From Sphingobacteriia bacterium RIFOXYC2_FULL_35_18 (GTDB lineage: Bacteria > Bacteroidota > Bacteroidia > Chitinophagales > Chitinophagaceae), in contig MIAG01000001.1 of assembly GCA_001829005.1 (NCBI GenBank), positions 709,007 to 773,006 of the forward strand: DNA of 64,000 bases, in the 5' to 3' direction. The position numbers were made by a program, and so were the translations under genes. Below the pieces are notes generated by a model, which saw only the letters and a program-made list of their open reading frames with translations, was not told the DNA's origin and searched no databases. This document shows, in pieces, positions 1-12,398 of the stretch (position 1 is its first letter; each line of letters starts with the position of its first letter).

Positions 1-762
1 GCTAAGCAGTGGTGTGTACTCTGCTTAATGGTACAGGCTGTTTTATTGGCTGAAGGAATATTGGTTATAACAAATAACAGTTTTTCATTTTCTGAGACAA
101 AGGAAGCATTTGCAAACAATTTTATTTTGGCGCTATACGCTTTATTAATACCATCAATATCTTGGTTTTTGGTAAAGCCTTTGTTAAAAAGATTGCAGGT
201 AGCTAAGTACGAAAAGAGAAGTTATTCAATGCTAAAGTTTAACGATCAAGTATTTTGGTCATTGCTTAAAACTCAGCCATCCATTGTTGATCATTCTACA
301 AGTGAATTGGGTATAACTATTGGTAACCCCAATGCAAAACATACTATTATCAAAGTTTGCAATCCTTATTGTGGCCCTTGCGCAACAGCACATCCTGAGT
401 TAGAGAAAATTATTGAACTAAACCATGATGTAAAAGCACAAATCATTTTTACAGCAACTAATCAGGAGAATGATAGAGGTGCAAAACCAGTTAAACATTT
501 ATTAGCTATTGCTGAAAAAGGCAATGAACATATTACTCATAAAGCATTAGATGATTGGTATTTAGCTAAAGAAAAGAATTATGATGTTTTTGCCAACAAA
601 TACCCAATGAATGCAGAACTAGATAAACAAACAGACAAAATCAATCAAATGAAAGATTGGTGTGAAAAGGTGAAAATCGAATACACTCCAACTATTTTTA
701 TTGATGGTTTTCTATTACCAAAAGGATATCAAATAAAGGACATTAATTATTTTCTTTCATGA
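1..762 (+). CDS. VKOR-thioredoxin fusion protein, C-terminal part (5' end lies outside the window); paralog of 2752..4356
   Basis: Frame 1 is open from nt 1. It starts AKQWCVLCL (the VKOR CXXC helix), followed by one more hydrophobic helix and a thioredoxin/DsbA-like domain with CNPYCGPC. By eye there are about 30 substitutions over about 253 aligned residues against the C-terminus of 2752..4356. Confidence 0.85.
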   Translation, partial: AKQWCVLCLMVQAVLLAEGILVITNNSFSFSETKEAFANNFILALYALLIPSISWFLVKPLLKRLQVAKYEKRSYSMLKFNDQVFWSLLKTQPSIVDHSTSELGITIGNPNAKHTIIKVCNPYCGPCATAHPELEKIIELNHDVKAQIIFTATNQENDRGAKPVKHLLAIAEKGNEHITHKALDDWYLAKEKNYDVFANKYPMNAELDKQTDKINQMKDWCEKVKIEYTPTIFIDGFLLPKGYQIKDINYFLS

Positions 763-885
763 AAAAGAAAAAACATATTTCTTTTCGACTAGTACCCGAA
801 AAGAAAAGCCAAATGGTACTACACTTTATCGCGAATGAGTGGTTTGGCAAGCCAATAATCTGCTGATGCTTAAAGCTGCAGAAAC
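763..885 (+). repeat. Duplicated intergenic element, copy A (between the VKOR-fusion stop and the precursor gene)
   Basis: Aligns with 4357..4478. Two near-identical blocks (cgactagtacccgaaaagaaaNgccaaatggtactacactt and agtggtttggcNagccaataatctgctgatgct) flank a diverged patch. It contains inverted repeats TAGTACC(790..796)/GGTACTA(815..821) and TTGGC-N2-GCCAA (844..855). Confidence 0.5.
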
Positions 886-935
886 TCTTTATGTAACCGC
901 TATTTATAAAATAAAAATAGCATAAAATTTAATTT

Positions 936-1115
936 ATGAAACAGAAAGTCGAAAATTTAGGCTTCCTTTTACCTAAGAATGCTCAGAAGAAAATTTTAGG
1001 TGGGAATATTGAAGATGAAACAACACAATGCTATGAATGTACTGCAGGAGAAAAAGAATGGGGATTCGGTTGCCCTAGTCCATTGAGATCTGATTGTAAA
1101 TGCGAGAAGTGTTAG
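936..1115 (+). CDS. Double-glycine-leader Cys-rich peptide precursor P1 (59 aa), absent from the ORF track
   Basis: Hand translation gives MKQKVENLGFLLPKNAQKKILGG/NIEDETTQCYECTAGEKEWGFGCPSPLRSDCKCEKC*. The 23-aa leader aligns with those of 4507..4731 and 10400..10636. The core has 6 Cys. It occupies the same cassette position as P2. Confidence 0.8.
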   Translation: MKQKVENLGFLLPKNAQKKILGGNIEDETTQCYECTAGEKEWGFGCPSPLRSDCKCEKC

Positions 1116-1139
1116 GGGTTGATTTATAAGAATTTTCAT

Positions 1140-1184
1140 AATCAAAAATGATATAAGTGAAGAATACTTATATCATTTTTGATT
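1140..1184 (+). terminator. 19-bp perfect A/T-rich hairpin directly after precursor P1 (partial terminator or processing site)
   Basis: aatcaaaaatgatataagt-gaagaat-acttatatcatttttgatt. It ends in a T-rich run 14 nt before the ATG of 1199..2266. Confidence 0.5.
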
Positions 1185-1198
1185 TTAAATAAAATTTC

Positions 1199-2266
1199 AT
1201 GAATTTCATTATTGCTTTTTTAATGGTTTTGTTTACTAATTTTTCATTGTACTCACAAACCACAGATATTTCGATAAGTGGTAAAATTAATGGCACATAC
1301 CCTGATAAAATATTTTTATTTTTTGATGGAAATATAAATGCTAAAGATAGTCTAAGTTCAGTAATTGCAAATGGGCACTTCCAGTTTAATCTAAAAACAA
1401 AACTTCCAATATTATGTAGATTACATTTTAGCGAAAACACTAATATAGTTGAATTTTATATCGATAACCCAACTACATTAATTTACTTGAATAGTAAAAT
1501 TGAAACCAATAGTGAGAATAAAACAAAACGTACATATTTTGAACTTGACAGTATTAAGGGATCAGTTATCGAAGTCAATAGGCAGTTATTCGAAAAATCC
1601 TTAGCGAAAGTAGAAACACTTAATATTTCTACTATAGAAAAAAGAAATTTGCATTATAATTTATTAGATAGTTTTATCACAAAAAATCCTAAAAGCAAAC
1701 TTGCACTATACTTTTTGGCAACAAATAAAATTCTTTCTTTAAATCAAATTAACCTTCTAAAATCAAATTTTGATACTAGTCTTTTATCATCTTATGAAGG
1801 ACAAAAACTAAATCGATCAATAATATCGCTATTGCGCTTAAAAAATAGATTGATAGGAGAGCAATTTCACCATGTTAGTCTTCCAGATAAATTTGGAAAA
1901 AAGATTGAAACTTCAATATATGCTGGTAAAATTGTTTTAATAAATTTTTGGGCTTCCTGGTGCGCTCCATGTAGGGAAAAGCATCCAGAAGTAGTCAAAT
2001 TATTTAATTCTTATAAAAGATCTCAATTTGATATTATTGGTATTTCCTTTGATGATAATCTAGAATATTGGAGAGCAGCTGTAGTAAAGGATAAGATAAA
2101 ATGGTTACAGTTAATTGACACGAAATATACATATGGTACACTTTCTTCCTATTATGATATAAAAGGAGTGCCATCAAATATCCTTATTAATAGAGATGGA
2201 AAAATTTTGGGCTTTGATTTAACAAATCAAGAAATCAAAAAATTTACTGATGATAATCTTAAATAA
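1199..2266 (+). CDS. Secreted TlpA/redoxin-like thioredoxin-fold protein with an N-terminal DUF4369-like domain
   Basis: Signal-like N-terminus MNFIIAFLMVLFTNFSLYSQ. The C-terminal thioredoxin fold has NFWASWCAPC and the cis-Pro loop GVPSNILI. Confidence 0.85.
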   Translation: MNFIIAFLMVLFTNFSLYSQTTDISISGKINGTYPDKIFLFFDGNINAKDSLSSVIANGHFQFNLKTKLPILCRLHFSENTNIVEFYIDNPTTLIYLNSKIETNSENKTKRTYFELDSIKGSVIEVNRQLFEKSLAKVETLNISTIEKRNLHYNLLDSFITKNPKSKLALYFLATNKILSLNQINLLKSNFDTSLLSSYEGQKLNRSIISLLRLKNRLIGEQFHHVSLPDKFGKKIETSIYAGKIVLINFWASWCAPCREKHPEVVKLFNSYKRSQFDIIGISFDDNLEYWRAAVVKDKIKWLQLIDTKYTYGTLSSYYDIKGVPSNILINRDGKILGFDLTNQEIKKFTDDNLK

Positions 2267-2423
2267 TAGAACAGAATATTAATAACAAAGTCCTTCTAGT
2301 TAGAACCTAGCGTTTTTGGTTAATACTGAGGTTGAATTGTAAGTCCCCCAAATATTAAACAGTTTTATTTAGAGTGTAGTCATTTTTAGTATGGTTGGAT
2401 TTTTTTAAAATCATATTACTATT

Positions 2424-2577
2424 GCGCCCCCACCTGCCTCTATATGATAAGTAGGTACTATGGTCGTGTGTTAATTTTCAAACATCTGGGTTAAAGTTGA
2501 GTTTTGAAAAACTAATAGAAGAAGCTCCAAAGCCTGTAAATCTTCATTGGGGTTTAAACATTCAATTGTTTAGCAAA
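2424..2577 (+). pseudogene. Decayed remnant of the 5' end (C39 domain) of a second ABC exporter gene
   Basis: Nucleotide similarity to 6180..6405 (tatatgataagtaggtaYtatggtcgtgtg...ttttcaaacatctgggttaaagttRagttttgaaaaa...gaagaagc). There are internal deletions and a frameshift leading to a stop. A short stretch just after it resembles the HlyD 3' end. Confidence 0.7.
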
Positions 2578-2751: not shown

Positions 2752-4356
2752 ATGTTAACTGGTGTTTTATTTAATAGTTTACATGAAAATCAACCATTAA
2801 TTGTTGCCGCTTTATTAAAGGGATTAAAAGTGAACGTAAGCATGGAAACGATTAATGATACATTACAATCGCATCCCGACTATCCAAGCTTTTTATCTAT
2901 TTCAGATTCATTGAATAATTGGAAGGTTGAAAATCTGGTTATTCAAACTTCGGTAGAAAAATTATCAGAGATTCCCACACCATTTATTACAAGCTTTAAA
3001 AAAGGTGTTTTTGTAGGAGTATTAGAAGTTCTAGAAAATGAGCTAGTTATTGTAAACCAACAAGGCAAAAAAGAAACGATTGCTAAAAATGTATTTTTAT
3101 CTCAATGGACTGAAAACTTCTTAGTTGCTGAAGCAAATGAGTTTTCTGGAGAAATCAATTACCAACAAAAGATTAATGCTACTAGTGTAAAAACGGTTGT
3201 TTATAGTTTAATCCCACTAGGAATTTTGACTTCTTTATTCATTCCATACTTGAATGGTTCCATTACCCTTTTGCCCACATTGTATTTATTGGTGAAGTTA
3301 ATAGGTTTAACTGCATCTGTACTACTACTATGGTATGATATAGATAAAGGCAACCCTTTATTAAAACAAATCTGTTCAGGTATACAAAAAGCCAATTGCA
3401 GTGCTGTCTTAAATACCAAAGCTGCATCGCTAGGGGGCATAGTAACGTGGAGTGAAGTTGGCTTTGTATATTTTGCAGGGTCATTATTATTCTCAGCGAC
3501 CTCTGGTATTAGTAAGGTATTGCCTGTTTTAAGTATAATCTCCTTATTAGCCCTGCCTTATATCATTTTCTCTATTTATTACCAGTGGAAAGTAGCCAAG
3601 CAGTGGTGTGTACTCTGCTTAATGGTTCAGGCTGTTTTATTGGCTGAAGGAATATTGGTTATAGCAAATAACAGTTTATCATTTTCTGAGACAACAGCAG
3701 CATTTGCAAACAATTTCATTTTTGCACTTTACGCTTTACTCATTCCCACAATATTTTGGTTTTTATTAAAGCCATTGTTGAAAAGATTACAGATTGCTAA
3801 GTACGAAAAGAGAAGTTATTTAATGCTTAAGTTTAACGATGATGTATTTTGGTCATTGCTTAAAAATCAGCCATCTATTGTTGATCATTCTACAAGTGAA
3901 TTGGGTATAACTATTGGTAACCCCAATGCAAAACATACTATTATCAAAGTTTGCAATCCTTATTGTGGGCCATGTGCAACAGCACATCCTGATATTGAAA
4001 AGATTATTGAGAGTAATCCAGAGGTTAAAGCTCAAATTATTTTTACTACAACAAATCACGAGAATGACCGTGGTGCAAAACCTGTTAAACATTTATTAGC
4101 TGTATCTGAAAAAGGAGATGAAAATCTCACCAAAAATGCGCTTGACGATTGGTATTTGGCTAAAGAAAAAAGTTATGATGTTTTTGCCAACAAATACCCA
4201 ATGAATGGAGAAATAGATAAACAAACGGACAAAATCGACCAAATGAAAGAATGGTGTGAAAAAGTGAAAATTGAATACACTCCAACTATTTTTATTGATG
4301 GTTTTTTATTACCAAAAGGATATCAAATAAAGGACATCAATTATTTTCTTTCATGA
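2752..4356 (+). CDS. Three-domain fusion: non-catalytic C39-like domain + VKOR (vitamin K epoxide reductase family) + thioredoxin/DsbA-like domain
   Basis: The N-terminal ~130 aa align with the C39 domain of 6103..8391 (ISDSLNNWKVENLVIQTSVEKLSEIPTPFITSF vs ISDAAEKIGFQTSGLKLSFEKLIEEAPKPAILHW) but lack the catalytic Cys and His. The VKOR loop Cys pair is CSGIQKANC and the membrane CXXC is WCVLC. The C-terminal domain has CNPYCGPC. Confidence 0.85.
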   Translation: MLTGVLFNSLHENQPLIVAALLKGLKVNVSMETINDTLQSHPDYPSFLSISDSLNNWKVENLVIQTSVEKLSEIPTPFITSFKKGVFVGVLEVLENELVIVNQQGKKETIAKNVFLSQWTENFLVAEANEFSGEINYQQKINATSVKTVVYSLIPLGILTSLFIPYLNGSITLLPTLYLLVKLIGLTASVLLLWYDIDKGNPLLKQICSGIQKANCSAVLNTKAASLGGIVTWSEVGFVYFAGSLLFSATSGISKVLPVLSIISLLALPYIIFSIYYQWKVAKQWCVLCLMVQAVLLAEGILVIANNSLSFSETTAAFANNFIFALYALLIPTIFWFLLKPLLKRLQIAKYEKRSYLMLKFNDDVFWSLLKNQPSIVDHSTSELGITIGNPNAKHTIIKVCNPYCGPCATAHPDIEKIIESNPEVKAQIIFTTTNHENDRGAKPVKHLLAVSEKGDENLTKNALDDWYLAKEKSYDVFANKYPMNGEIDKQTDKIDQMKEWCEKVKIEYTPTIFIDGFLLPKGYQIKDINYFLS

Positions 4357-4478
4357 GAAAGAATAATCATATTTTTTTCGACTAGTACCCGAAAAGAAAT
4401 GCCAAATGGTACTACACTTGGTGATCAACAAGTGGTTTGGCGAGCCAATAATCTGCTGATGCTATAAGCTGCAGAAAC
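4357..4478 (+). repeat. Duplicated intergenic element, copy B
   Basis: Aligns with 763..885. It includes TTGGC-N2-GCCAA at 4437..4448. Confidence 0.5.
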
Positions 4479-4506
4479 ATTATTAATAAATTTAATTTTT
4501 TTAAAA

Positions 4507-4731
4507 ATGAAACTGAAATTCGGAAATTTCGGAACTTTACTCACTAGATCACAAGCGAAAAGTATTATTGGTGGATATATGGTAGAAGATCCTAGCTCAT
4601 GTACTGTAGATTGTACTGGATGTCCGCCATATAAATGTACTTCAAATTGCGAAGCAATGAAGAACGGTGAATCTGTAACTTGTGATGGAGTTACCAAAAA
4701 ATGTAAAGCTTACCCAACATGTTGGGAATAA
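4507..4731 (+). CDS. Double-glycine-leader Cys-rich peptide precursor P2 (74 aa)
   Basis: MKLKFGNFGTLLTRSQAKSIIGG/YMVEDPSSCTVDCTGCPPYKCTSNCEAMKNGESVTCDGVTKKCKAYPTCWE. The leader is 23 aa and the core has 8 Cys. Confidence 0.85.
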   Translation: MKLKFGNFGTLLTRSQAKSIIGGYMVEDPSSCTVDCTGCPPYKCTSNCEAMKNGESVTCDGVTKKCKAYPTCWE

Positions 4732-4735
4732 TTTT

Positions 4736-4766
4736 ATGCCGACTATTTTAGTCGGCATACTTTTTT
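4736..4766 (+). terminator. Rho-independent terminator directly after P2
   Basis: atgccgacta-ttt-tagtcggcat followed by acTTTTTT, 5 nt after the stop codon. Confidence 0.75.
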
Positions 4767-4777
4767 AAAACTTTAGA

Positions 4778-6049
4778 ATGTTTAAAATAGTAATATACTT
4801 TTTAATTTTAACGGGTTTTACTCCTTGCTTCTCACAATTTGATAAGGTGAATCTATCTGTTAAGCCTGGGAAAAATGAATTTGATTTTAGTACTTTCAAT
4901 TTTCATTTATCCAAACAAGATATTAATAGTTTTGTAATCCCTCCTTTAAAGTATCTTTTAATTTTTGATTCTTATACAAACGATAATAAATTATTCTACT
5001 TTAATTACAAGAATGGTATTGTACCTGATTCCATTTTTACATTAATTAAAAGCAAAAGAAGTCTTGATTCTGACGATTTTCTTGTCTTAGATAATGATGA
5101 TATTTTAGAAGTATTAGTTGGCATTGACTCATTAGATAATTTAATAATAATCCCTAATGCTAACAATAATAAATCATTTACTGACGACTCTGTTTATGTC
5201 TTTAAAAGAAGTTTACAACAAACTAATCAGTTTGAAATAAGTAATGTTGAATTTAAGAATATCGATTATCGGATAGGTAATAATAGTTCTAACTTGAAAA
5301 CTTACTATAAATTAAAGATAGAAGTTGATTTTGATAGTTTTGACAAGCTAAAAGTAATGTCAACAAATATTTCTTTTTATGAAGGAGTTATAATGATTGA
5401 TAATAATAACTTTATTTTAAAAATTCAATTAAGTGGAACAGGATTAGATTTTAAATATAAATATGGAATTTACTATAAACTCATAAGCCCAATTTTAAAT
5501 ACTGCTGTAAATTTAGTTCCCGAAAGAGAAATCAAGAAAAGCTCAACATTGGAAAAATATACGTTTACCCTAGATAGTGTAAGTCTTTTTGGTGATGTTG
5601 CTTATGTAAAAGTTAAAAAAAATAATAAAATCTTTAGTGAAACTTCTTTTATAAATAATCTTGAAGGTTTTAATTTATTAAATAATTCAACTTTTAAATT
5701 CCTCAATAATAGTTATTATAAAGTCCTTGACTTTTGGGCTTCTTGGTGCTTACCATGTTTGTCAGACCATAAACTATTAATGAATGATATTTTTAAAATT
5801 CAAGCTAAAAATGTATTATTCTTTGGTGTTATTAACGATGAGAATGATTTAATGAATTCAAAAAAATACTTATTAAATTCAAATTATTTATGGAAAAATT
5901 ATTTTATTAAATCCAAAAAGCATATCGAATATTTTAATGTCAAATCATTTCCAACTTATATTGTTTTATCAAAATTTAATCAAATTATTCTCAGAACTAA
6001 TAGTTATCAAGAATTAATGAATTTCATTAACCAATTAGATGTAAAATAA
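4778..6049 (+). CDS. Secreted protein with a large unknown N-terminal domain and a C-terminal TlpA/redoxin-like thioredoxin fold
   Basis: Signal-like MFKIVIYFLILTGFTPCFSQ. The C-terminal ~110 aa contain DFWASWCLPC and the cis-Pro loop SFPTYIVL. The gene is very A+T rich. Confidence 0.8.
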   Translation: MFKIVIYFLILTGFTPCFSQFDKVNLSVKPGKNEFDFSTFNFHLSKQDINSFVIPPLKYLLIFDSYTNDNKLFYFNYKNGIVPDSIFTLIKSKRSLDSDDFLVLDNDDILEVLVGIDSLDNLIIIPNANNNKSFTDDSVYVFKRSLQQTNQFEISNVEFKNIDYRIGNNSSNLKTYYKLKIEVDFDSFDKLKVMSTNISFYEGVIMIDNNNFILKIQLSGTGLDFKYKYGIYYKLISPILNTAVNLVPEREIKKSSTLEKYTFTLDSVSLFGDVAYVKVKKNNKIFSETSFINNLEGFNLLNNSTFKFLNNSYYKVLDFWASWCLPCLSDHKLLMNDIFKIQAKNVLFFGVINDENDLMNSKKYLLNSNYLWKNYFIKSKKHIEYFNVKSFPTYIVLSKFNQIILRTNSYQELMNFINQLDVK

Positions 6050-6102: not shown

Positions 6103-8391
6103 GTGAAAACATATATTAACTCAAGCTTTATTAAACAAAACTTCTTTTTCTACCCTCAACAAAACCAAATGGACTGCGGTCCTACTTGTTTGTATATGAT
6201 AAGTAGGTATTATGGTCGTGTGTTTGCATTAGAGAAGCTAAGGGAGTTAACAGAGATAGGTAAGGAGGGTGTTAATTTATTAGGTATTAGTGATGCTGCT
6301 GAAAAGATAGGTTTTCAAACATCTGGGTTAAAGTTAAGTTTTGAAAAATTAATTGAAGAAGCGCCAAAACCCGCAATACTGCATTGGGGGCAAAACCATT
6401 TCATTGTTTTACCACCACAAAAGAGGGCTTTTTTTTCAAAGCCAAAAAACATAATAATAGCTGATCCCGCTAAAGGGATTATTACCATCAGCAAAGAGCT
6501 GTTCTTACAAAAATGGATAAGTGATAAAAATGAGGATGGGGAGTCTACCGGTATTGCCTTAATTCTAGAGCCTGGACAAAACTTTTATAATGCCAATTAC
6601 GGGCATGATTTTAAAGAGTTAACAAACAACCATGCTAACCAACTTTGGGGTTATATAAAGCCACATAAAAAACTGGTATTCCAACTTTTCTTAGGGGTCA
6701 TGCTGGGTAGTTTATTGCAATTGGTATTTCCTTTTCTCACACAAAGTGTAGTTGATGTTGGTATCAACACTCAAAATATTCAATTTGTATATATTGTTTT
6801 ATTAGCTCAACTGGCTTTGTTTATTGGGCGTTTGGGAGTAGAATTTATTCGCAGTTGGATTTTATACCATATCAGTAGTCGAATCAATATTTCTATTCTT
6901 ACGGGTTTTTTGATAAAGCTGATGAAATTGCCATTGGCTTATTTTGATAGCAAAAAAACAGGGGATATTCTTCAAAGAATGAATGACCATAAACGCATTC
7001 AAAATTTCTTGACTGGAACTTCACTTAGTACTTTGTTTTCTCTATTCAATTTATTGGTTTTTTCTGTTGTGTTGCTTAATTATAGTGTACTCATTTTTGG
7101 TGTTTTTACAGCTGCTAGTGTGCTATACATTTTATGGATTTTAATCTTCTTAAAGAAAAGAAAAGAGCTTGATTACCAGCAGTTTGATATTGCTGCTGCA
7201 GAACAGAGCAGTACCATTCAATTGGTACAAGGTATGCAGGAGATTAAGTTGCATGGTAGTGAAAAACAACAAAGATGGCAATGGGAACATTTACAAGCAT
7301 CACTATTTAGGGTAGGAATGAAAGGGCTTGCATTAAATCAATGGCAACAAGCGGGTGCTTTCTTTATTAACGAGGGCAAAAATATATTCATCACATTTGT
7401 GGCAGCAACAGCAGTGATCCAAGGACAAATAACCCTTGGCGCAATGCTTGCAATTCAATATATCATTGGGCAATTAAACTCCCCAATTGAGCAAATGATT
7501 GGGTTCGTTCAAAATTGGCAATTGGCTAAAATTAGTCTGGAAAGATTGAATGAAATACATCAATTGGCCGATGAAGAACAGTTCAATTTGAACAGTGATG
7601 CTTCTTCAGCCTTGGTTACAGAGTTGCCTCAAAACCGATCTATACACCTTCAAAATATCAGCTTTACCTATCCAGGCGCTGGTAATGAGCCTGTACTTAA
7701 AAATATTTCCATGCAAATACCACAAGGAAAAGTAACAGCGATTGTAGGGTCTAGTGGCAGTGGTAAAACCACCTTACTAAAATTATTGCTCAAATTTTAT
7801 GAAGCGAAGTCTGGGGATATATATATTGGTGATCAGGCAGAATCAGCAGGTTTAAATTTGTCAAATATTAGCCATCGTGCTTGGCGTAAACAGTGTGGTG
7901 TAGTAATGCAAGACAGCTTTATTTTTTCTGATAGTATTGCTAAAAATATAGCTGTTGGGGAAGATTATCCCGATAAGGCAAGGTTAAGATATGCTGCAAA
8001 AATTGCCAATATCACTTCGTTTATCGAAAGTTTACCACTGGGTTATAATACCAAAATTGGTGCAGAAGGCACGGGGGTAAGTGCAGGGCAAAGACAAAGG
8101 ATCTTAATTGCTAGAGCTGTTTACAAAAACCCGGATCTAATTTTATTAGATGAAGCTACCAACGCATTAGATTCTAATAATGAAAGTACTATTTTAAAAA
8201 ACTTAAACTTGTTTTTTGAAGGTAAAACAGTTGTAGTGGTAGCACACCGCTTAAGCACTGTTCGTAATGCTGACCAAATAGTGGTATTACACAATGGGGT
8301 GATTACCGAGCAAGGTACACATGCTAAATTAACAGCAATGAAGGGTGAATATTTTACTTTGGTTAAAAATCAATTAGAATTAGGTGATTAA
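6103..8391 (+). CDS. Peptidase C39 domain-containing bacteriocin-type ABC exporter
   Basis: GTG start. C39 motifs QMDCGPTCLYM and NHFIVL. A six-helix membrane domain. Walker A GSSGSGKTT, signature VSAGQRQR and Walker B LILLDEAT. Confidence 0.93.
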   Translation: MKTYINSSFIKQNFFFYPQQNQMDCGPTCLYMISRYYGRVFALEKLRELTEIGKEGVNLLGISDAAEKIGFQTSGLKLSFEKLIEEAPKPAILHWGQNHFIVLPPQKRAFFSKPKNIIIADPAKGIITISKELFLQKWISDKNEDGESTGIALILEPGQNFYNANYGHDFKELTNNHANQLWGYIKPHKKLVFQLFLGVMLGSLLQLVFPFLTQSVVDVGINTQNIQFVYIVLLAQLALFIGRLGVEFIRSWILYHISSRINISILTGFLIKLMKLPLAYFDSKKTGDILQRMNDHKRIQNFLTGTSLSTLFSLFNLLVFSVVLLNYSVLIFGVFTAASVLYILWILIFLKKRKELDYQQFDIAAAEQSSTIQLVQGMQEIKLHGSEKQQRWQWEHLQASLFRVGMKGLALNQWQQAGAFFINEGKNIFITFVAATAVIQGQITLGAMLAIQYIIGQLNSPIEQMIGFVQNWQLAKISLERLNEIHQLADEEQFNLNSDASSALVTELPQNRSIHLQNISFTYPGAGNEPVLKNISMQIPQGKVTAIVGSSGSGKTTLLKLLLKFYEAKSGDIYIGDQAESAGLNLSNISHRAWRKQCGVVMQDSFIFSDSIAKNIAVGEDYPDKARLRYAAKIANITSFIESLPLGYNTKIGAEGTGVSAGQRQRILIARAVYKNPDLILLDEATNALDSNNESTILKNLNLFFEGKTVVVVAHRLSTVRNADQIVVLHNGVITEQGTHAKLTAMKGEYFTLVKNQLELGD

Positions 8392-8400
8392 AGACGAATT

Positions 8401-9738
8401 ATGCCTCAACAAGAAGAATCATATAGTTTAGATGCAATGCTCGAAGCGGCTAATATTGAACGGTTAGATGAGGCAGATCGTATTTATAGCCATGAGGTTC
8501 GCGAAATCATTAGCAGTAAACCTGTATGGATAGTAAGAAATGGCATTGCAATGTTTTTTGGCATTATTGGTTTGTTATTTACGTTAACTTTTTTTATTCA
8601 ATACCCAGATATCGTTAAAGCACCTGTAAAAATTGTTGGGGATAATTTGCCAAAACAAATTATTAGTAAATCTGAAGGACGAATTGTTTATTTAAATGCA
8701 CTTGAAAATAAAAAAGTAATTGTTGGTGACGTTTTAGCCATTTTACAAAGTAATGCAGATTACAAACAAGTGCTGTTGTTTAAAAAATGGATTGATCAAA
8801 CTGAACTTGATTTAAAAGGAAATAATTGGAATGCGATTAGCCAGTTAGCAACACTCAATCAATTGGGAGATTTACAAAAAAATTATCAAGATATTGCCCA
8901 ACAAATCTATCAACTCTCTTGGGCAAAGACTAAAGGGTACTTTAACCAAAAACGTGATGCCATTGCTCAAGACATTAGGCTGATTAATCTGTCTAAGGAG
9001 AACGCGAATAATCAAAAGCAATTGATTCTTCAAGATTTAGCAATGCAACAAGGAGTATTGGACATTAATGAAAAACTGGCTAATGAAAAAGTGATTGCAC
9101 CGCTTGATTTAATTAAGGATAAATCAACCGTATTATCTAAGAAACAACAATTAGTTCAAGTTGATGCTGCGGATATTAATCAGTCTGCTAATATTGTTGC
9201 CAAACAAAAAGAATTATTGGAAATTGAAAAGCTAAATGCGGATATCCAACAAAACTTTATTGCAGCTCTCTTTAATGCCAAAAGTGCATTGACCGAATGG
9301 TCAAATCGATACATATTAGTTGCCAGTGAAACAGGTACTTTACAATTTGCCAGTTACTTTCAAGAGAATAGTTGGATCAAAACGGGTCAAGAGCTCTTTT
9401 ATATTATTCCGAAACAACCCACCTATTTTGCAGAGCTGATTGCATCCCAACAGAATTTTGGCAAATTAAAGCAAGGTCAACAGGTGAATATTGCACTTAA
9501 TAGTTATCAACGAAATGAATTTGGTGTGTTACAAGGAACTATCATTAATATTCCGCAAGTTCCCTATAAAGACACTAGTTTCTTAATTAAGGTTAAGCTA
9601 ACTAAAGGTTTGCAAACAAATTATCAAAAGCCCATCCATTTTAGTAATAGTTTGACTGGCACTGCAGATGTCATTACAGCGGAAGCTAGTTTAGCCGATC
9701 GGTTATTGTATCAATGGAGGGGTTTGTTTGCAAGATAA
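8401..9738 (+). CDS. HlyD-family secretion adaptor (membrane fusion protein)
   Basis: Single N-terminal TM helix, a long coiled-coil middle region and a C-terminal beta domain. It lies directly after the ABC exporter gene (9-nt gap). Confidence 0.85.
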   Translation: MPQQEESYSLDAMLEAANIERLDEADRIYSHEVREIISSKPVWIVRNGIAMFFGIIGLLFTLTFFIQYPDIVKAPVKIVGDNLPKQIISKSEGRIVYLNALENKKVIVGDVLAILQSNADYKQVLLFKKWIDQTELDLKGNNWNAISQLATLNQLGDLQKNYQDIAQQIYQLSWAKTKGYFNQKRDAIAQDIRLINLSKENANNQKQLILQDLAMQQGVLDINEKLANEKVIAPLDLIKDKSTVLSKKQQLVQVDAADINQSANIVAKQKELLEIEKLNADIQQNFIAALFNAKSALTEWSNRYILVASETGTLQFASYFQENSWIKTGQELFYIIPKQPTYFAELIASQQNFGKLKQGQQVNIALNSYQRNEFGVLQGTIINIPQVPYKDTSFLIKVKLTKGLQTNYQKPIHFSNSLTGTADVITAEASLADRLLYQWRGLFAR

Positions 9739-9742
9739 TTTT

Positions 9743-9774
9743 CGGGGGGTAAAAATACCCCCCGGTATTATTTT
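9743..9774 (+). terminator. Rho-independent terminator CGGGGGGTA-AAAA-TACCCCCCG plus T-rich tail
   Basis: Begins 4 nt after the HlyD stop. It is the same element as at 2675. Confidence 0.7.
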
Positions 9775-9791: not shown

Positions 9792-10382
9792 ATGTATGTT
9801 CACGGTATGAACTTATCTATAAAATGGTATATTTTTTTTATTCTTTGTTCCTTCGTAGTTAAAAATTCTTTTTCTCAACAACAATACGAGAATAAAAAAA
9901 TAAAATTTATTGAATCAGTAACTGAATATTCAACTCTGGAAGAATTTTTGTCAAGACCAATTTATAAAGATAAAATTGTTTACATCGATCTTTGGGGTAC
10001 CACTTGTTTACCTTGCCTCAGAGAATTTAAGTATATGAACACATTAAAGAAAAAGCTAAAAAATTATGATATTAGTTTCCTCTTTATATGTCAGAATACC
10101 CAAGGTGATACCAATAATGAGTGGAAACGAAAATGGAAATCAATAGTGAATAAATATCAGTTAGAAGGTACACATATATATACCTACTTAAAACCCCCTG
10201 ATAAATTCGTGCATGAAAAAATTGACTTTGAGTACATGAAAAAAAATATTAATGAACCGTTAGGTTATGGTATACCAAGGTATCTCATTGCCAAAGGCGG
10301 GAAAATATTAATCTATAATGCATACAAGCCTAGTGATGTTTTTAAATTAACACACCAAATAGATTCATTAAATCTTTTTTAA
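9792..10382 (+). CDS. Secreted small TlpA/redoxin-like thioredoxin-fold protein
   Basis: Signal-like MNLSIKWYIFFILCSFVVKNSFSQ (an alternative start at 9807 is plausible). Active site LWGTTCLPC and cis-Pro loop GIPRYLI. Confidence 0.8.
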   Translation: MYVHGMNLSIKWYIFFILCSFVVKNSFSQQQYENKKIKFIESVTEYSTLEEFLSRPIYKDKIVYIDLWGTTCLPCLREFKYMNTLKKKLKNYDISFLFICQNTQGDTNNEWKRKWKSIVNKYQLEGTHIYTYLKPPDKFVHEKIDFEYMKKNINEPLGYGIPRYLIAKGGKILIYNAYKPSDVFKLTHQIDSLNLF

Positions 10383-10399: not shown

Positions 10400-10636
10400 A
10401 TGAAACAAAACTTATCAAAAATCGGAAATGCCCTTTCAAGGCAAATGCAAAAAAGTATTGTAGGTGGTATTGAGTCTGGTTCATGGTTATGTACATTTAC
10501 ATACACAAATGGCTTAACATTGACTCAGGTTTTTACTGAGCCAAATGGAAATGCAGCTCAATGTGCGGCTGATTATGTTTGTTGGTCTGATAATACTTGC
10601 ACAAATGCTGATTGTGCTGGTTCTGGCGAGTGTTAA
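10400..10636 (+). CDS. Double-glycine-leader Cys-rich peptide precursor P3 (78 aa)
   Basis: MKQNLSKIGNALSRQMQKSIVGG/IESGSWLCTFTYTNGLTLTQVFTEPNGNAAQCAADYVCWSDNTCTNADCAGSGEC. The leader is 23 aa and the core has 6 Cys. Confidence 0.85.
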   Translation: MKQNLSKIGNALSRQMQKSIVGGIESGSWLCTFTYTNGLTLTQVFTEPNGNAAQCAADYVCWSDNTCTNADCAGSGEC

Positions 10637-10660: not shown

Positions 10661-11143
10661 ATGCAAACAAAGCAGGGACACCATAATAGTACCTATATTC
10701 GGAAATACTATACTGTAAAATCCCGCAATCGTTTGTGTTGTTTTTTTGAGAAGCGGTATGTTGTCAAAAGCATATTTGCTTTATTGTGCTTCTACTTTTT
10801 TAGTTGCCGTTCAAGCCAATACAAAAAAGACTATATCAATAAAAGAGGTGAACGAGTTTTTACTGATTACAATAATAATCGTACAATTATATTTTCAGGC
10901 GAAGCTGCAAAATTAAATGCCATACTACGGAAAGATCAATTTCTTGATACTGTTTCCTTTCGGGAATTGAAAAAAAGAATCAATGTATACGAACGATTTA
11001 TTGCTTTACATCCTGACTCAATTATTGTAAGACAAACTGACTTTCCTCAGAAATTAACTCAGATTGACTCGTTTTATGTAAACAAGTATAAAATAAAGTA
11101 CTTAAAACGAAATAAGATTACATCTCCAAATATTCATTTCTAA
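10661..11143 (+). CDS. Hypothetical protein (possible membrane-anchored or lipoprotein; start uncertain)
   Basis: 160-aa ORF with a hydrophobic segment SIFALLCFYFFSC near the N-terminus. I recognise no family. Confidence 0.45.
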   Translation: MQTKQGHHNSTYIRKYYTVKSRNRLCCFFEKRYVVKSIFALLCFYFFSCRSSQYKKDYINKRGERVFTDYNNNRTIIFSGEAAKLNAILRKDQFLDTVSFRELKKRINVYERFIALHPDSIIVRQTDFPQKLTQIDSFYVNKYKIKYLKRNKITSPNIHF

Positions 11144-11177
11144 GTTCAAATAAATAGTGCCTGCGTGAAAAACTTTT

Positions 11178-12398
11178 ATGTTAAAAACGATAATTAGCAA
11201 ATTAAGAATTAGTATTATAACTTCAGTTCTCTTGCTAATTAATTCAGTATTCCTTCAATTAGCTGTAAAGGGAAATCCTATCAATGTATACAATAATTCA
11301 CTTTTGAATAAAAATTGTGTATCACAGGATAGTCTTATTTATTTTAAAATCATTGATTCTATTTCAAAGGAAACTATTCCATTTGCAACAATCATTTTTA
11401 TTGAGAATGACACAAATAAAATGTCTATTGTTTCAAATGAAGATGGCTCATTTTCTATTCCCAATTCAAGCTTCCCCAAAAAGGTAAAAATTTCTGCAGT
11501 TGGTTATGAAGAACAACTGTTTTATTTGTTTCATGTTAATCGGTTGCTTTTGAAGCCATTAAAGAGCTTATTACCTGAAATTATCGTTAGAAGTAAGGCA
11601 ATGAAATCAAGGAGCGCAAACGCAATAATTAAACAGGTAGCTAATCGCTTTGAGGATAACTATGGCAATTTTTCTTTTAGTCAAAATTTAAAATTTTCCT
11701 CAGTAATTTATAATTACGACACTTTAAAAGAAAAGGCTGAAGAATTTGTAAAGGTATATTATCGAAATGCTGATAAAAGCATGAAATCTCCAAATTGGAT
11801 TAAAGACACTTTATATCAGGATAAACTTTTCACCAATTTTATTGGAGTTTCCCGATTATGTACAGGTGATATTATTCCATGGTTTGATATGCTGCGAAAA
11901 GGGTTGCCAATTGACGGAAATAATAATAAAGGATTAGACTTTAAACTTATTTCCAAATACAAGGATGAAAAATATGGTCTTGTTTATATTGTAAGTTTCA
12001 TGCCAAATAAATCTTTTAAAGATTCATTTTTAGGTCGAACTGTTGGAGGATTAGCAAGAGGATACCTGAAAGGAGAAATCAGGATAAGAGAATTAGATTA
12101 TTCAATTATTAGATTGAAGTATGTCTGGGAAATGAAAGTTGAATCTCTCAATAGAGGTACAACCAATTTATTTCATACTAAAACATGGAAAGCAAATCGT
12201 GTTACAAAAATGATATCAGATAAAATATTTTACAAGTATGATTATATGTATTATAAGGATGTTCATACTGGTAAATACTTTATTGACTCAATCAATGCGG
12301 AATGCTTTAATTCAGGATATCAAATCGAAACTAATCGCAACTTACTTTTAAACATAAAATTTAATGTTAGTAATAATGGAATTGAGATAGATAAATAA
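11178..12398 (+). CDS. Hypothetical secreted/membrane protein with a carboxypeptidase-regulatory-like (CarboxypepD_reg) beta-sandwich domain
   Basis: N-terminal hydrophobic helix. The segment FKIIDSISKETIPFATIIF...DGSFSIP...ISAVGYEE is typical of CarboxypepD_reg domains. Confidence 0.6.
   Translation: MLKTIISKLRISIITSVLLLINSVFLQLAVKGNPINVYNNSLLNKNCVSQDSLIYFKIIDSISKETIPFATIIFIENDTNKMSIVSNEDGSFSIPNSSFPKKVKISAVGYEEQLFYLFHVNRLLLKPLKSLLPEIIVRSKAMKSRSANAIIKQVANRFEDNYGNFSFSQNLKFSSVIYNYDTLKEKAEEFVKVYYRNADKSMKSPNWIKDTLYQDKLFTNFIGVSRLCTGDIIPWFDMLRKGLPIDGNNNKGLDFKLISKYKDEKYGLVYIVSFMPNKSFKDSFLGRTVGGLARGYLKGEIRIRELDYSIIRLKYVWEMKVESLNRGTTNLFHTKTWKANRVTKMISDKIFYKYDYMYYKDVHTGKYFIDSINAECFNSGYQIETNRNLLLNIKFNVSNNGIEIDK

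Follow-up and report, generated by a model that had tools for sequence, protein, structure and literature searches.

A C39-like, VKOR and thioredoxin fusion protein in peptide loci of Bacteroidota is a candidate cytoplasm-facing disulfide oxidase

The fusion gene, its neighbours and its domains

The window (the whole 64,000-nucleotide stretch that was analysed) carries two cassettes in which a gene for a three-domain fusion protein is accompanied by genes for a Cys-rich precursor peptide with a double-glycine (GG) leader and for an exported TlpA-like thioredoxin protein, the second cassette being followed by genes for a PCAT exporter and its HlyD-family adaptor (Table 1). The first fusion gene enters the window only with its 3' part, which is 89% identical in nucleotide and 87% in protein sequence to positions 3595-4356 of the complete gene, and the peptide beside it also follows fusion genes at three further loci (L007, L014 and L022). 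The TlpA/ResA-like protein of the first cassette opens with a hydrophobic segment ending in ..YSQ; the matches of the TlpA-like protein of the second cassette and of the short protein ahead of the third peptide lie under their respective cutoffs (Thioredoxin_8, 21.7 bits against 27; Redoxin, 22.4 bits against 26.6), and a TlpA-like gene occupies the same position as that of the second cassette in most related loci. Between the cassettes, blastn aligned positions 2423-2472 with 6175-6224 and 2475-2571 with 6312-6409, each at 84% identity, and this decayed copy of the PCAT 5' end is the scar of a cassette duplication.

Table 1. Positions of the fusion gene, its domains and its neighbours in the window
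Feature	Position	Strand	Basis or remark
Paralogous fusion gene, 3' part, cut by window edge	1..762	+	In frame from base 1 (AKQWCVLCL...); Pfam Thioredoxin_4
Precursor peptide, GG leader (MKQKVENLGFLLPKNAQKKILGG) and 6-Cys core	936..1115	+	Translation
Exported TlpA/ResA-like thioredoxin protein (DUF4369 + Trx, WCAPC), cassette 1	1199..2266	+	Pfam, NCBIfam
Decayed copy of PCAT 5' end (C39-coding part)	2423..2571	+	blastn
C39-like/VKOR/thioredoxin fusion gene	2752..4356	+	534 aa; ORF from first ATG past a stop
C39-fold domain without catalytic Cys/His/Asp, residues 1-137	2752..3162	+	Pfam, hhalign, Foldseek
Extra transmembrane helix H0, residues 137-167, ahead of VKOR bundle	3160..3252	+	AlphaFold2 model
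VKOR four-helix core TM1-TM4, residues 173-305	3268..3666	+	Pfam PF07884; model helices
Loop cysteine pair C208...C216 (CSGIQKANC)	3373..3399	+	Invariant in 61 close and 69 distant relatives
VKOR active-site CXXC, C286-V-L-C289	3607..3618	+	Invariant in 61 close and 69 distant relatives
TM5 running on into strongly basic helix (KPLLKRLQIAKYEKRSYLMLK), residues 322-360	3715..3831	+	Model helix
DsbA-like thioredoxin domain, residues 380-534	3889..4353	+	Pfam PF13462; Foldseek; invariant residues
Precursor peptide, GG leader (..SQAKSIIGG) and 8-Cys core	4507..4731	+	Translation; 150 nt downstream of fusion gene
Exported TlpA-like thioredoxin protein (WCLPC), cassette 2	4778..6049	+	Weak Pfam/NCBIfam matches
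PCAT with intact C39 domain (QMDCGPTC, NHFIVL)	6103..8391	+	Pfam C39 + ABC_membrane + ABC_tran; NCBIfam
HlyD-family periplasmic adaptor	8401..9738	+	Pfam HlyD_3; NCBIfam TIGR01843
Short TlpA/ResA-like thioredoxin protein (TCLPC), upstream of third peptide	9792..10382	+	Weak Pfam/NCBIfam matches
Third GG-leader precursor peptide, 6 Cys in core	10400..10636	+	Translation

An initial annotation, made from the sequence alone, had described the product of the complete gene as a C39-like domain, a VKOR and a thioredoxin domain in one polypeptide, and this composition is borne out both by an AlphaFold2 model (mean pLDDT 87.4) and by Pfam matches to Peptidase_C39 (PF03412; residues 18-128, E 3e-8, 34 bits against a cutoff of 22), VKOR (PF07884; residues 178-302, E 8e-14, 52.3 bits against 27.5) and Thioredoxin_4 (PF13462; residues 383-518, E 1e-10, 42 bits against 23.2). 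The VKOR hallmarks to which it drew attention, the loop cysteine pair and the CXXC motif, are likewise all present, with C208, C216, C286 and C289 invariant in close and distant relatives alike. The CGPC motif of the thioredoxin domain that it placed after the VKOR (C405 and C408; nt 3964-3975) is, together with the cis-Pro motif T510-P511-T512, invariant in the alignment of 61 close relatives, and Foldseek matched the domain, which has the thioredoxin fold with a helical insertion, to ScsC, alpha-DsbA2 and BdbD (TM 0.58-0.67). A structural disulfide between C401 and C502 is unlikely, because neither cysteine is kept in distant members. Searches of the PDB with the family profile and with the VKOR segment alone returned no VKOR match.

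The C39-like domain and the loci of the family

Pairwise BLASTP between the N-terminal domain and the C39 domain of the neighbouring exporter gave a weak match (E 0.001, 28% over 80 aa), and phmmer of the domain against the PDB returned a spurious NapD match only. Comparison of profiles by hhalign, in which residues 16-137 align with residues 28-166 of the exporter, relates the domain to the PCAT C39 family with a probability of 97.6% and an E value of 3e-12, and Foldseek overlays the model on the ComA peptidase domain (PEP, 5xe8; TM 0.76, rmsd 2.6 Å) and on leader-bound LahT150 (6mpz_D; TM 0.76, rmsd 2.2 Å), with PCAT1 also among the matches. The kinship with the exporter's C39 domain proposed at the outset is thus sustained, Pfam, hhalign and Foldseek all indicating a C39 fold.

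The accompanying claim that the catalytic residues are replaced also stands, with two registers for the cysteine. Within the hhalign alignment exporter H98 corresponds to V86 and the catalytic Asp to N102 of the fusion, and exporter C25 reaches N13 only by ungapped extension past the start of that alignment, against I17 in the register of the initial annotation; the Cys-motif region is unmatched in Pfam as well, because the C39 match begins at profile position 18. No conserved Cys or His was found at either former Cys column (N13, I17) or at the His column in the 61 close or the 69 distant relatives, and the catalytic Cys, His and Asp and the oxyanion Gln required of a C39 peptidase are absent from the domain. 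Conservation is only moderate at the former active site, and strong in surface motifs comprising H41, P42, D43, W57, P77, F78, W119, S132, G133 and E134. Degenerate C39-like domains such as that of HlyB bind substrate, and by analogy the N-terminal domain would hold the GG leader of a precursor without cutting it. Similarity between the profiles runs on from the C39 domain into the linker ahead of PCAT TM1, and fragments of PCAT 5' ends adjoin fusion genes, showing that the fusion and PCAT genes have recombined.

The fusion family comprises about 3,100 clusters at 50% identity, nearly all from Bacteroidota, and is common in human-gut Phocaeicola and Parabacteroides. We collected 432 fusion loci from species-representative genomes. 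Where at least 9 kb of downstream sequence is available (n=49), a PCAT gene, mostly followed by one for HlyD, lies downstream in 47 loci at a median distance of 2.8 kb, and an ORF with a GG leader and at least four cysteines occurs within 700 nt past the fusion gene in 58 of 68 cases, as against 6 of 741 control windows; these peptides carry 4, 6 or 8 cysteines, the count being even in 56 of the 58. This genomic context excludes a housekeeping VKOR of the clade, which by the terms of the initial annotation would have refuted its proposal. In gut Bacteroidales the fusion genes adjoin genes for LanC-like proteins and glycosyltransferases, which are cytoplasmic, leader-dependent tailoring enzymes. 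Two apparent departures from the usual architecture proved spurious: P0187 is not a natural variant lacking the thioredoxin domain, a Thioredoxin_4 remnant ORF lying just downstream, and the seemingly separate C39 and Trx genes of L081 (P. distasonis) reflect a frameshift, since H0 carries on in another frame. A search of the literature on VKOR in connection with C39, bacteriocins, leader peptides, bacteroidetocin or RiPPs found no earlier account of such a protein.

Membrane helices and orientation

The model contains six membrane helices (residues 137-167, 173-197, 233-251, 253-282, 287-305 and 322-360), which agrees with the earlier count, the Cys loop being preceded by two of them and followed by four. 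The argument from parity that had been built on this count also holds, in that six membrane helices place the C39-like domain, both VKOR cysteine pairs and the thioredoxin domain on one and the same side. The initial annotation took this shared side to be the periplasm, which is probably wrong: the lack of a signal peptide, the hydrophobicity of H0, an inverted charge bias and a signal-less thioredoxin partner lead us to read the side that carries the N-terminal domain, the Cys loop, the CXXC motif and the thioredoxin domain as, probably, the cytoplasm.

No signal peptide was found on the N-terminal domain, and only 2 of 144 family representatives have a hydrophobic N-terminal extension. H0 sets the parity and thereby decides how the entire VKOR-Trx module is oriented. 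No other segment of the family is as hydrophobic (mean maximum Kyte-Doolittle value 2.42; 99% of the 144 representatives reach 1.6 or more), and H0 is predicted as a continuous helix of 31 residues, connected with TM1 through a loop of some 5 residues that has approximately 0.1 K+R. Over 61 sequences the mean K+R content on the shared side is 3.7 in the N-flank, 4.5 in the Cys loop, 1.9 in the CXXC loop and 7.25 after TM5 (counted over 26 residues past the membrane core), a sum of 17.4, as against 0.1, 0.2 and 0.5 in the three opposite loops, a sum of 0.8; the difference between the sides is at least 13 in all 61. The same bias is seen among distant members from Bacteroidales (n=69; 13.4 vs 1.0) and among the representatives of the 50% clusters (n=144; 17.5 vs 0.98, minimum difference 9), and it still points inward when the flank of H0 is left out (13.7 vs 0.8). 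As a control on topology we used 118 outward-facing relatives of the Synechococcus VKOR-Trx protein, the reference sequence having been verified against 3KP9/4NV2, and these average 4.1 K+R on the Cys-loop side and 9.4 on the other, with the classical pattern in 96%; the window's own PCAT has no K+R in either of its periplasmic loops.

In a subfamily without the fused thioredoxin domain (P0196, P0197) the gene shares 4 nt with, and is translationally coupled to, a gene for a 98-aa thioredoxin (CPHC), which lacks a signal peptide, since it opens directly with the thioredoxin fold and an in-frame stop lies 15 nt upstream. This arrangement was found at two loci only, both on short contigs with no visible PCAT.

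Several considerations run against the inward reading. The positive-inside rule is statistical, and some basic residues, such as the invariant K283 beside the CXXC motif, may have a functional and not a topogenic role. Among solved structures, those nearest to the thioredoxin domain (ScsC, BdbD, alpha-DsbA2 and DsbG) are all extracytoplasmic, and the exported TlpA-like thioredoxin protein in every cassette speaks for thiol chemistry outside and would be explained more simply by a classical pair of VKOR and partner. Oxidation in the cytoplasm would be countered by the cytoplasmic thioredoxin system, and we know of no demonstrated case in which a PCAT exports a pre-oxidised peptide with three or four disulfides.

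Proposed route of peptide oxidation and relation to known systems

With the balance of the sequence evidence tilting modestly in favour, we propose that the fusion may be a quinone-linked disulfide oxidase of the inner membrane that faces the cytoplasm and is dedicated to the GG-leader, Cys-rich peptides of its own locus, which it probably cross-links before export. H0 would insert with its N-terminus in and its C-terminus out, like TM1 of an ABC exporter after the cytoplasmic C39 domain, and the VKOR module would therefore be forced into the membrane upside down. The C39-like domain would grip the leader of the uncleaved precursor without cutting it, the core cysteines would be oxidised by the tethered thioredoxin domain, and electrons would pass from CGPC to C208/C216, on to C286/C289 and from there to menaquinone, after which the oxidised, leader-bearing peptide would be handed to the PCAT for removal of the leader and export with HlyD. 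Addressing through the leader would ensure that a potentially damaging oxidase acts on none but its own substrates within the reducing cytoplasm and, more speculatively, the exported TlpA-like proteins of the cassettes may proofread or isomerise disulfides outside it. The initial annotation had been puzzled that a domain suited to leaders should share a side with the active sites, and had suggested, among other possibilities, that oxidation precedes cleavage; given the evidence for the cytoplasmic side, this is the best-supported resolution. Whether the fusion is, beyond this, the first cytoplasm-facing bacterial VKOR, inverted through one added PCAT-derived N-terminal helix and acting as a leader-guided, menaquinone-driven synthase of two to five disulfides before export, we would put at even chances. 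We reject a DsbD-like transmembrane conduit supplying electrons to the TlpA-like proteins, since every VKOR cysteine is on the same side and the electrons would go to quinone.

A classical orientation, with the VKOR-Trx module and, by parity, the C39-like domain in the periplasm, would have the peptides or the TlpA-like protein oxidised after export, and the C39-like domain binding the cleaved core peptide, the TlpA-like partner or HlyD. It would agree with the periplasmic DsbA-like proteins that are the nearest solved structures of the thioredoxin domain, with the TlpA-like proteins as conserved, exported cassette partners and with the outward orientation of every bacterial VKOR described so far (preprint 10.64898/2026.03.26.714578), but would require translocation of a folded N-terminal domain of 147 aa that lacks a signal peptide and has 3.7-4.5 K+R right before H0, and would leave the cytoplasmic loops with about 0.8 K+R and the periplasmic side with about 17 in every sequence, the reverse of classical VKOR-Trx proteins. 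As the leader would be gone by the time the peptide reached the periplasm, and the subfamily lacking the thioredoxin domain has a signal-less partner, we regard this arrangement as very unlikely. A division in which H0 is interfacial or re-entrant, the C39-like domain cytoplasmic and the VKOR-Trx module periplasmic would put both in their usual compartments and account for the exported TlpA-like partners; the N-terminal domain would then tether the oxidase to the leader or the PCAT, and the peptide would be oxidised as it emerges, possibly through the TlpA-like protein. The confidence of the model is indeed at its minimum around H0 (pLDDT 75-80), but the hydrophobicity of this segment, the highest in the family, its uninterrupted 31-residue helix and the 5-residue turn to TM1 speak against such a placement, as do the signal-less partner and a charge bias that remains inward without H0 (13.7 vs 0.8, compared with 4.1 vs 9.4 in classical enzymes), and we consider it unlikely.

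A further alternative keeps the inward oxidase but not the reading of leaders: the C39-like domain and H0 would be mainly a relic of the N-terminal part of a PCAT, the helix of which inverted the VKOR, or, in another form, the domain would dock on the PCAT or HlyD to channel the substrate, recognition being left to the thioredoxin domain or the core sequence. The extension of profile similarity beyond the C39 domain into the linker, the traces of recombination with PCAT genes and the moderate conservation of the former active site would all suit this account. The domain is nevertheless kept across some 3,000 clusters with strongly conserved surface motifs, which argues for a maintained binding function, and substrate binding is known for degenerate domains of this kind, so that we give an N-terminal domain blind to the leader a low probability.

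Disulfide formation in bacteria is textbook periplasmic chemistry, and a large family of inverted bacterial VKORs addressed by a dead protease domain would, if confirmed, alter that periplasm-only picture. Such a family would amount in effect to a new class of RiPP tailoring enzyme, bringing a membrane quinone oxidoreductase into the set of leader-dependent peptide-tailoring enzymes, and would explain the disulfide-rich secreted peptides of Bacteroidota, including those of gut anaerobes without Dsb machinery. In practical terms, the fusion might serve as a compact, self-targeting means of producing disulfide-rich peptides in the cytoplasm, and as a genomic marker with which to mine thousands of knottin-like bacterial peptides.

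Among known enzymes, the Synechococcus VKOR-Trx fusion (3KP9, 4NV2, 4NV5) has in common with the family the VKOR core, the loop cysteine pair, the CXXC motif, a fifth helix and a C-terminal thioredoxin-like domain, and shares the electron path from thioredoxin through loop cysteines and CXXC to quinone. In contrast to the six helices here, it has five transmembrane helices with the N-terminus inside, neither an N-terminal domain nor H0, and a small thioredoxin domain with CPHC where that of the fusion is DsbA-like with CGPC; the charge bias is reversed, with 9.4 K+R on the non-Cys side vs 4.1 in the Synechococcus type and 0.8 vs 13.7-17.4 in the fusion family. Direct sequence searches found no connection between the two. 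The VKORi of Aeropyrum pernix faces the cytoplasm and is active there, all non-crenarchaeal VKORs facing outward (preprint 10.64898/2026.03.26.714578). The likeness of the Aeropyrum pernix and Pyrobaculum VKORi to the fusion family lies in catalytic cysteines turned to the cytoplasm, a placement that is only predicted for the latter, whereas VKORi is archaeal and general-purpose, was inverted by charge redistribution in a minimal VKOR rather than by an added N-terminal helix, and has neither a substrate-addressing domain nor a fused thioredoxin domain, the fusion having both a C39-like domain, putatively for addressing, and a thioredoxin domain.

The C39 domains of PCAT1, ComA and LahT show the same fold, from which a short linker likewise leads to a transmembrane helix, but the fusion has neither the catalytic triad nor the ABC transmembrane and nucleotide-binding domains of PCATs. 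The C39-like domain (CLD) of HlyB-type exporters is likewise a C39 fold without the catalytic Cys; it keeps the His and binds the RTX part of a large substrate, apparently without cleaving it. It sits in the ABC transporter itself, whereas the domain described here forms part of an oxidoreductase and retains none of Cys, His and Asp.

The closest resemblance in gene order is to the bacteroidetocin loci of gut Bacteroidales, which encode a multi-TM protein, a GG-leader Cys peptide, a thiol oxidoreductase and a PCAT (Coyne et al. 2019, PMC6671954); an HlyD gene goes unmentioned there, and their peptides have four cysteines. Full toxin activity depends on the TM protein as well as on the oxidoreductase, an exported protein of the TlpA-like type is required for toxin production, and Bacteroides lacks general Dsb machinery according to the authors, who describe the TM protein simply as an unknown five-TM protein, with no VKOR, C39-like or thioredoxin annotation (PMC6671954). 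This protein is putatively homologous to the fusion, which may be the oxidase that bacteroidetocin-like toxins have so far lacked, their TM protein of unknown kind being a genetic requirement. Searches that started from a Parabacteroides homologue recovered gut versions of the full fusion and no confirmed bacteroidetocin A or B locus. For sublancin (BdbA/BdbB) and pediocin (PedC), dedicated disulfide-forming proteins are encoded beside the bacteriocin gene and a PCAT-type exporter; these systems act outside the cytoplasm after export, without a leader-recognition domain, and use quinone reductases of the DsbB type, as opposed to the VKOR type of the fusion.

Domain architecture of the fusion protein

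Pfam profiles match the fusion protein as Peptidase_C39 at residues 18-128 (E 3e-8, exceeding the curated cutoff), VKOR at residues 178-302 (E 8e-14) and Thioredoxin_4 at residues 383-518 (E 1e-10). In an AlphaFold2 model (61 homologues as input, mean pLDDT 87.4), the N-terminal domain resembles the C39 peptidase domain ComA PEP (TM 0.76, rmsd 2.6 Å) and leader-bound LahT150 (TM 0.76, rmsd 2.2 Å) and also matches PCAT1; the C-terminal domain superposes on DsbA-like ScsC, alpha-DsbA2 and BdbD. When the N-domain family was compared, profile to profile, with the C39 family of the peptidase-containing ABC exporters (PCATs) from the same loci, the probability was 97.6% (E 3e-12). Inside this alignment the exporter's His98 corresponds to V86 and its catalytic Asp to N102, whilst Cys25 falls on N13 solely by ungapped extension past the alignment start, or on I17 in the register of the initial annotation. 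No conserved Cys or His occupies any triad column among the relatives, whether the 61 close ones or the 69 distant ones; the domain has a C39 fold yet is not a C39 peptidase, and its likeness to the HlyB C39-like domain goes no further than both being dead C39 domains. C208, C216, C286 and C289 (VKOR) and C405 and C408 (Trx CGPC) are invariant among the close relatives, the four VKOR cysteines in the distant ones also, and the protein is a true member of both the VKOR family and the DsbA-like thioredoxins. All of this agrees with the initial description of a catalytically dead C39-like domain joined to VKOR and thioredoxin, and the modelled helices (137-167, 173-197, 233-251, 253-282, 287-305, 322-360) bear out its helix count, two ahead of the Cys loop and four behind it.

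Predicted orientation in the membrane

With six membrane helices, the C39-like domain, both VKOR Cys pairs and the Trx domain share one side. The initial annotation had placed that side in the periplasm, where the leader should already have been removed; five independent observations argue against this and point to the cytoplasm, and the alternative raised at the same time, that oxidation precedes cleavage, would resolve the difficulty. PCAT C39 domains are cytoplasmic, as established from the PCAT1 structures. The 147-residue N-domain lacks a signal peptide, and a hydrophobic N-terminal extension occurs in just two of 144 diverse representatives, both of which look like mis-called starts. H0, the additional helix ahead of VKOR TM1, is the family's most hydrophobic stretch (at least 1.6 in 99% of representatives, 17-residue Kyte-Doolittle window), is continuous in the model with approximately five residues linking it to TM1, and is a genuine transmembrane segment.

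Mean Lys plus Arg counts on the N-domain/Cys side are 3.7 in the flank before H0, 4.5 in the Cys loop, 1.9 in the loop before CXXC and 7.25 in the 26 residues after TM5, compared with 0.1, 0.2 and 0.5 in the opposite H0-TM1, TM2-TM3 and TM4-TM5 loops. Totals are 17.4 versus 0.8, and in none of the 61 sequences is the difference below 13; they are 13.4 versus 1.0 in 69 Bacteroidales members (~26-30% identical), and 17.5 versus 0.98 among 144 50%-cluster representatives (minimum difference 9). All seven segments fit H0 inserted N-in and none fits the reverse. As controls, the outward-facing Synechococcus VKOR-Trx of known crystal structure (its sequence checked against 3KP9/4NV2) and 117 relatives gave 4.1 on the Cys-loop side versus 9.4 on the other, the classical direction holding in 96% of the set, and the window's own exporter has no Lys or Arg in either periplasmic loop. 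By prediction, then, the fusion protein does not adopt the orientation expected of a classical bacterial VKOR-Trx fusion.

A subfamily represented by P0196 and P0197 (335-343 aa) comprises the C39-like domain and VKOR without a fused Trx, and its gene is preceded by one for a 98-aa thioredoxin (CPHC) to which it is translationally coupled, the two overlapping by 4 nt in locus L086. This thioredoxin opens straight with the Trx fold and an in-frame stop lies 15 nt upstream, therefore leaving no room for a signal peptide. Because no PCAT is visible on the short contigs of these two loci, the substrate of this branch may be different. The subfamily gene is followed by an ORF of 52-58 aa that is not Cys-rich.

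Peptide loci and a proposed mechanism

The indexed search returned more than 1,500 family proteins; at 50% identity there are 5,930 clusters under an E limit of 1e-3 and 3,129 under one of 1e-30. Species-representative genomes hold 432 loci, Bacteroidota nearly throughout (Chitinophagaceae, Sphingobacteriia, Cytophagia and Bacteroidales), with Sediminibacterium salmoneum 92% identical to the window. Where at least 9 kb lay downstream, 47 of 49 loci contain a C39-ABC exporter (median distance 2.8 kb), usually with HlyD next. Downstream sequence sufficed for a count at 68 fusion genes, and 58 of them have a small ORF encoding a GG-type leader and four or more core cysteines within the next 700 nt; such an ORF occurs in 6 of 741 control windows from the same loci. 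The core Cys number is even (4, 6, 8 or 10) in 56 of these 58. Coupling to peptide loci is strong, and the protein is not a housekeeping enzyme. Annotated relatives in Emticicia and Parabacteroides carry the same cassette; the gut Phocaeicola fusion (P0163, indexed in 1,132 assembly-collection blocks) adjoins LanC-like and glycosyltransferase genes. The gut clusters L082 and L079 contain LanC-like proteins, glycosyltransferases, DUF3244, DUF5128, a C39 fragment, PCAT and HlyD, and their peptides may be glycosylated besides disulfide-bonded, in the manner of glycocins. An apparent two-gene form in Parabacteroides distasonis (L081 6484-8029), annotated as 'C39 domain-containing protein' plus 'thioredoxin domain-containing protein', was rejected: H0 runs on in another reading frame, and the frameshift is a pseudogene or assembly error.

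We propose that the protein is probably a substrate-addressed, inverted VKOR-Trx oxidase. By inserting N-in, H0 would turn the VKOR-Trx module over. The dead C39 domain would hold the double-glycine leader of the precursor before cleavage, and the core cysteines would be oxidised by the Trx domain, with electrons passing from CGPC via C208/C216 and C286/C289 to menaquinone; PCAT would then remove the leader and export the cross-linked peptide. The N-domain may thus confine a dangerous oxidase to leader-tagged substrates, as in leader-dependent RiPP enzymes, a logic that the LanC-like and glycosyltransferase neighbours fit. For lanthipeptides, PCAT-type transporters are established exporters of cross-linked peptides.

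An all-periplasmic protein seems to us distinctly improbable, and a split topology in which H0 does not span the membrane is also unlikely; neither agrees with the charge counts, with so hydrophobic an H0 or with a partner thioredoxin that has no signal peptide. On the other side, the nearest solved structures of the Trx domain are all extracytoplasmic proteins, and every cassette includes a gene for an exported TlpA-like protein whose N-terminal hydrophobic segment ends in ..SQ, the Bacteroidetes signal-peptidase 'Q-rule'. The three in the window have Trx domains with CxPC, and N-terminal parts of very different length and sequence, with DUF4369 present in the first; they vary along with the peptides, which suggests peptide-specific recognition. 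An inward-facing oxidase would require another role for them, perhaps, speculatively, peptide-specific isomerisation via the variable DUF4369 domains. The bacteroidetocin loci studied by experiment have a similar order, with an unknown five-TM protein, peptide, thiol oxidoreductase and PCAT, HlyD being unmentioned, and full toxin activity needs both TM protein and oxidoreductase (PMC6671954). That TM protein may be a homologue of the fusion family; a classical pair, in which an outward-facing VKOR works with a partner in the periplasm, would account for these requirements more simply. A third reading, to which we give little credence, keeps the enzyme inward-facing with the N-domain as a docking module or fusion relic and not a leader reader.

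A cytoplasm-facing VKOR has one precedent, in archaeal VKORi of Aeropyrum pernix, every other VKOR, bacterial included, being outward-facing according to a 2026 preprint (10.64898/2026.03.26.714578). Database labels for the family go no further than 'vitamin K epoxide reductase family protein' or 'thioredoxin domain-containing protein', and we found no literature linking VKOR with C39 domains, leaders, bacteriocins or RiPPs. An inward-facing bacterial VKOR, and leader-guided tailoring by a membrane quinone oxidoreductase, would surprise specialists.

Cassette organisation in the window

The cassette recurs as a fusion gene, then a precursor peptide and then an exported TlpA-like protein (table).

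Features of the window and of selected related loci
Sequence	Position	Strand	Feature
Window	1-2266		Second cassette, 3' part
Window	1-762	+	Second fusion-gene copy; window starts inside it, in frame from base 1
Window	936-1115		Precursor peptide behind second fusion copy
Window	1199-2266		TlpA-like gene of second cassette
Window	2423-2571	+	Decayed PCAT 5' end (C39-coding), in spacer upstream of fusion gene
Window	2752-6049		Complete cassette
Window	2752..4356	+	Fusion gene, ORF of 534 aa
Window	4778-6049		TlpA-like gene
Window	6103-9738		Exporter pair (PCAT and HlyD)
Window	9792-10382		Short TlpA-like gene with third peptide
Window	10400-10636		Third precursor peptide
L079	6980-14793		Gut Parabacteroides fusion cluster
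L082	4128-13560		Gut Phocaeicola fusion cluster
L086	4708-6176		Trx-less subfamily locus
L088	1-1441		Trx-less subfamily locus

At the nucleotide level the second fusion copy shares 89% identity with 3595-4356, and S. salmoneum (L001) has four copies within 21 kb. The decayed exporter end matches 6175-6224 and 6312-6409 at 84% identity, with an internal deletion, and shows that cassettes spread by duplication. Upstream of fusion genes in L001, L006 and L032 there are likewise short PCAT-like fragments, a sign that the cassette duplication units include the exporter's start.

No TolC-like outer-membrane channel gene was seen adjoining the PCAT-HlyD pair. Downstream of the third peptide lie two ORFs (10661-12398, + strand), one of 160 aa for which no family match was found and one of 406 aa with a weak CarboxypepD_reg-like match. 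Ahead of the fusion gene, 2616-2705 contains an imperfect palindrome (GGGGGTATTTTTACCCC ... GGGGGGTAAAAATACCCCCCG), and a related 41-nt copy, 88% identical, directly follows the HlyD gene (9735-9774); the two could represent a terminator or else a small repeat element of intergenic DNA.
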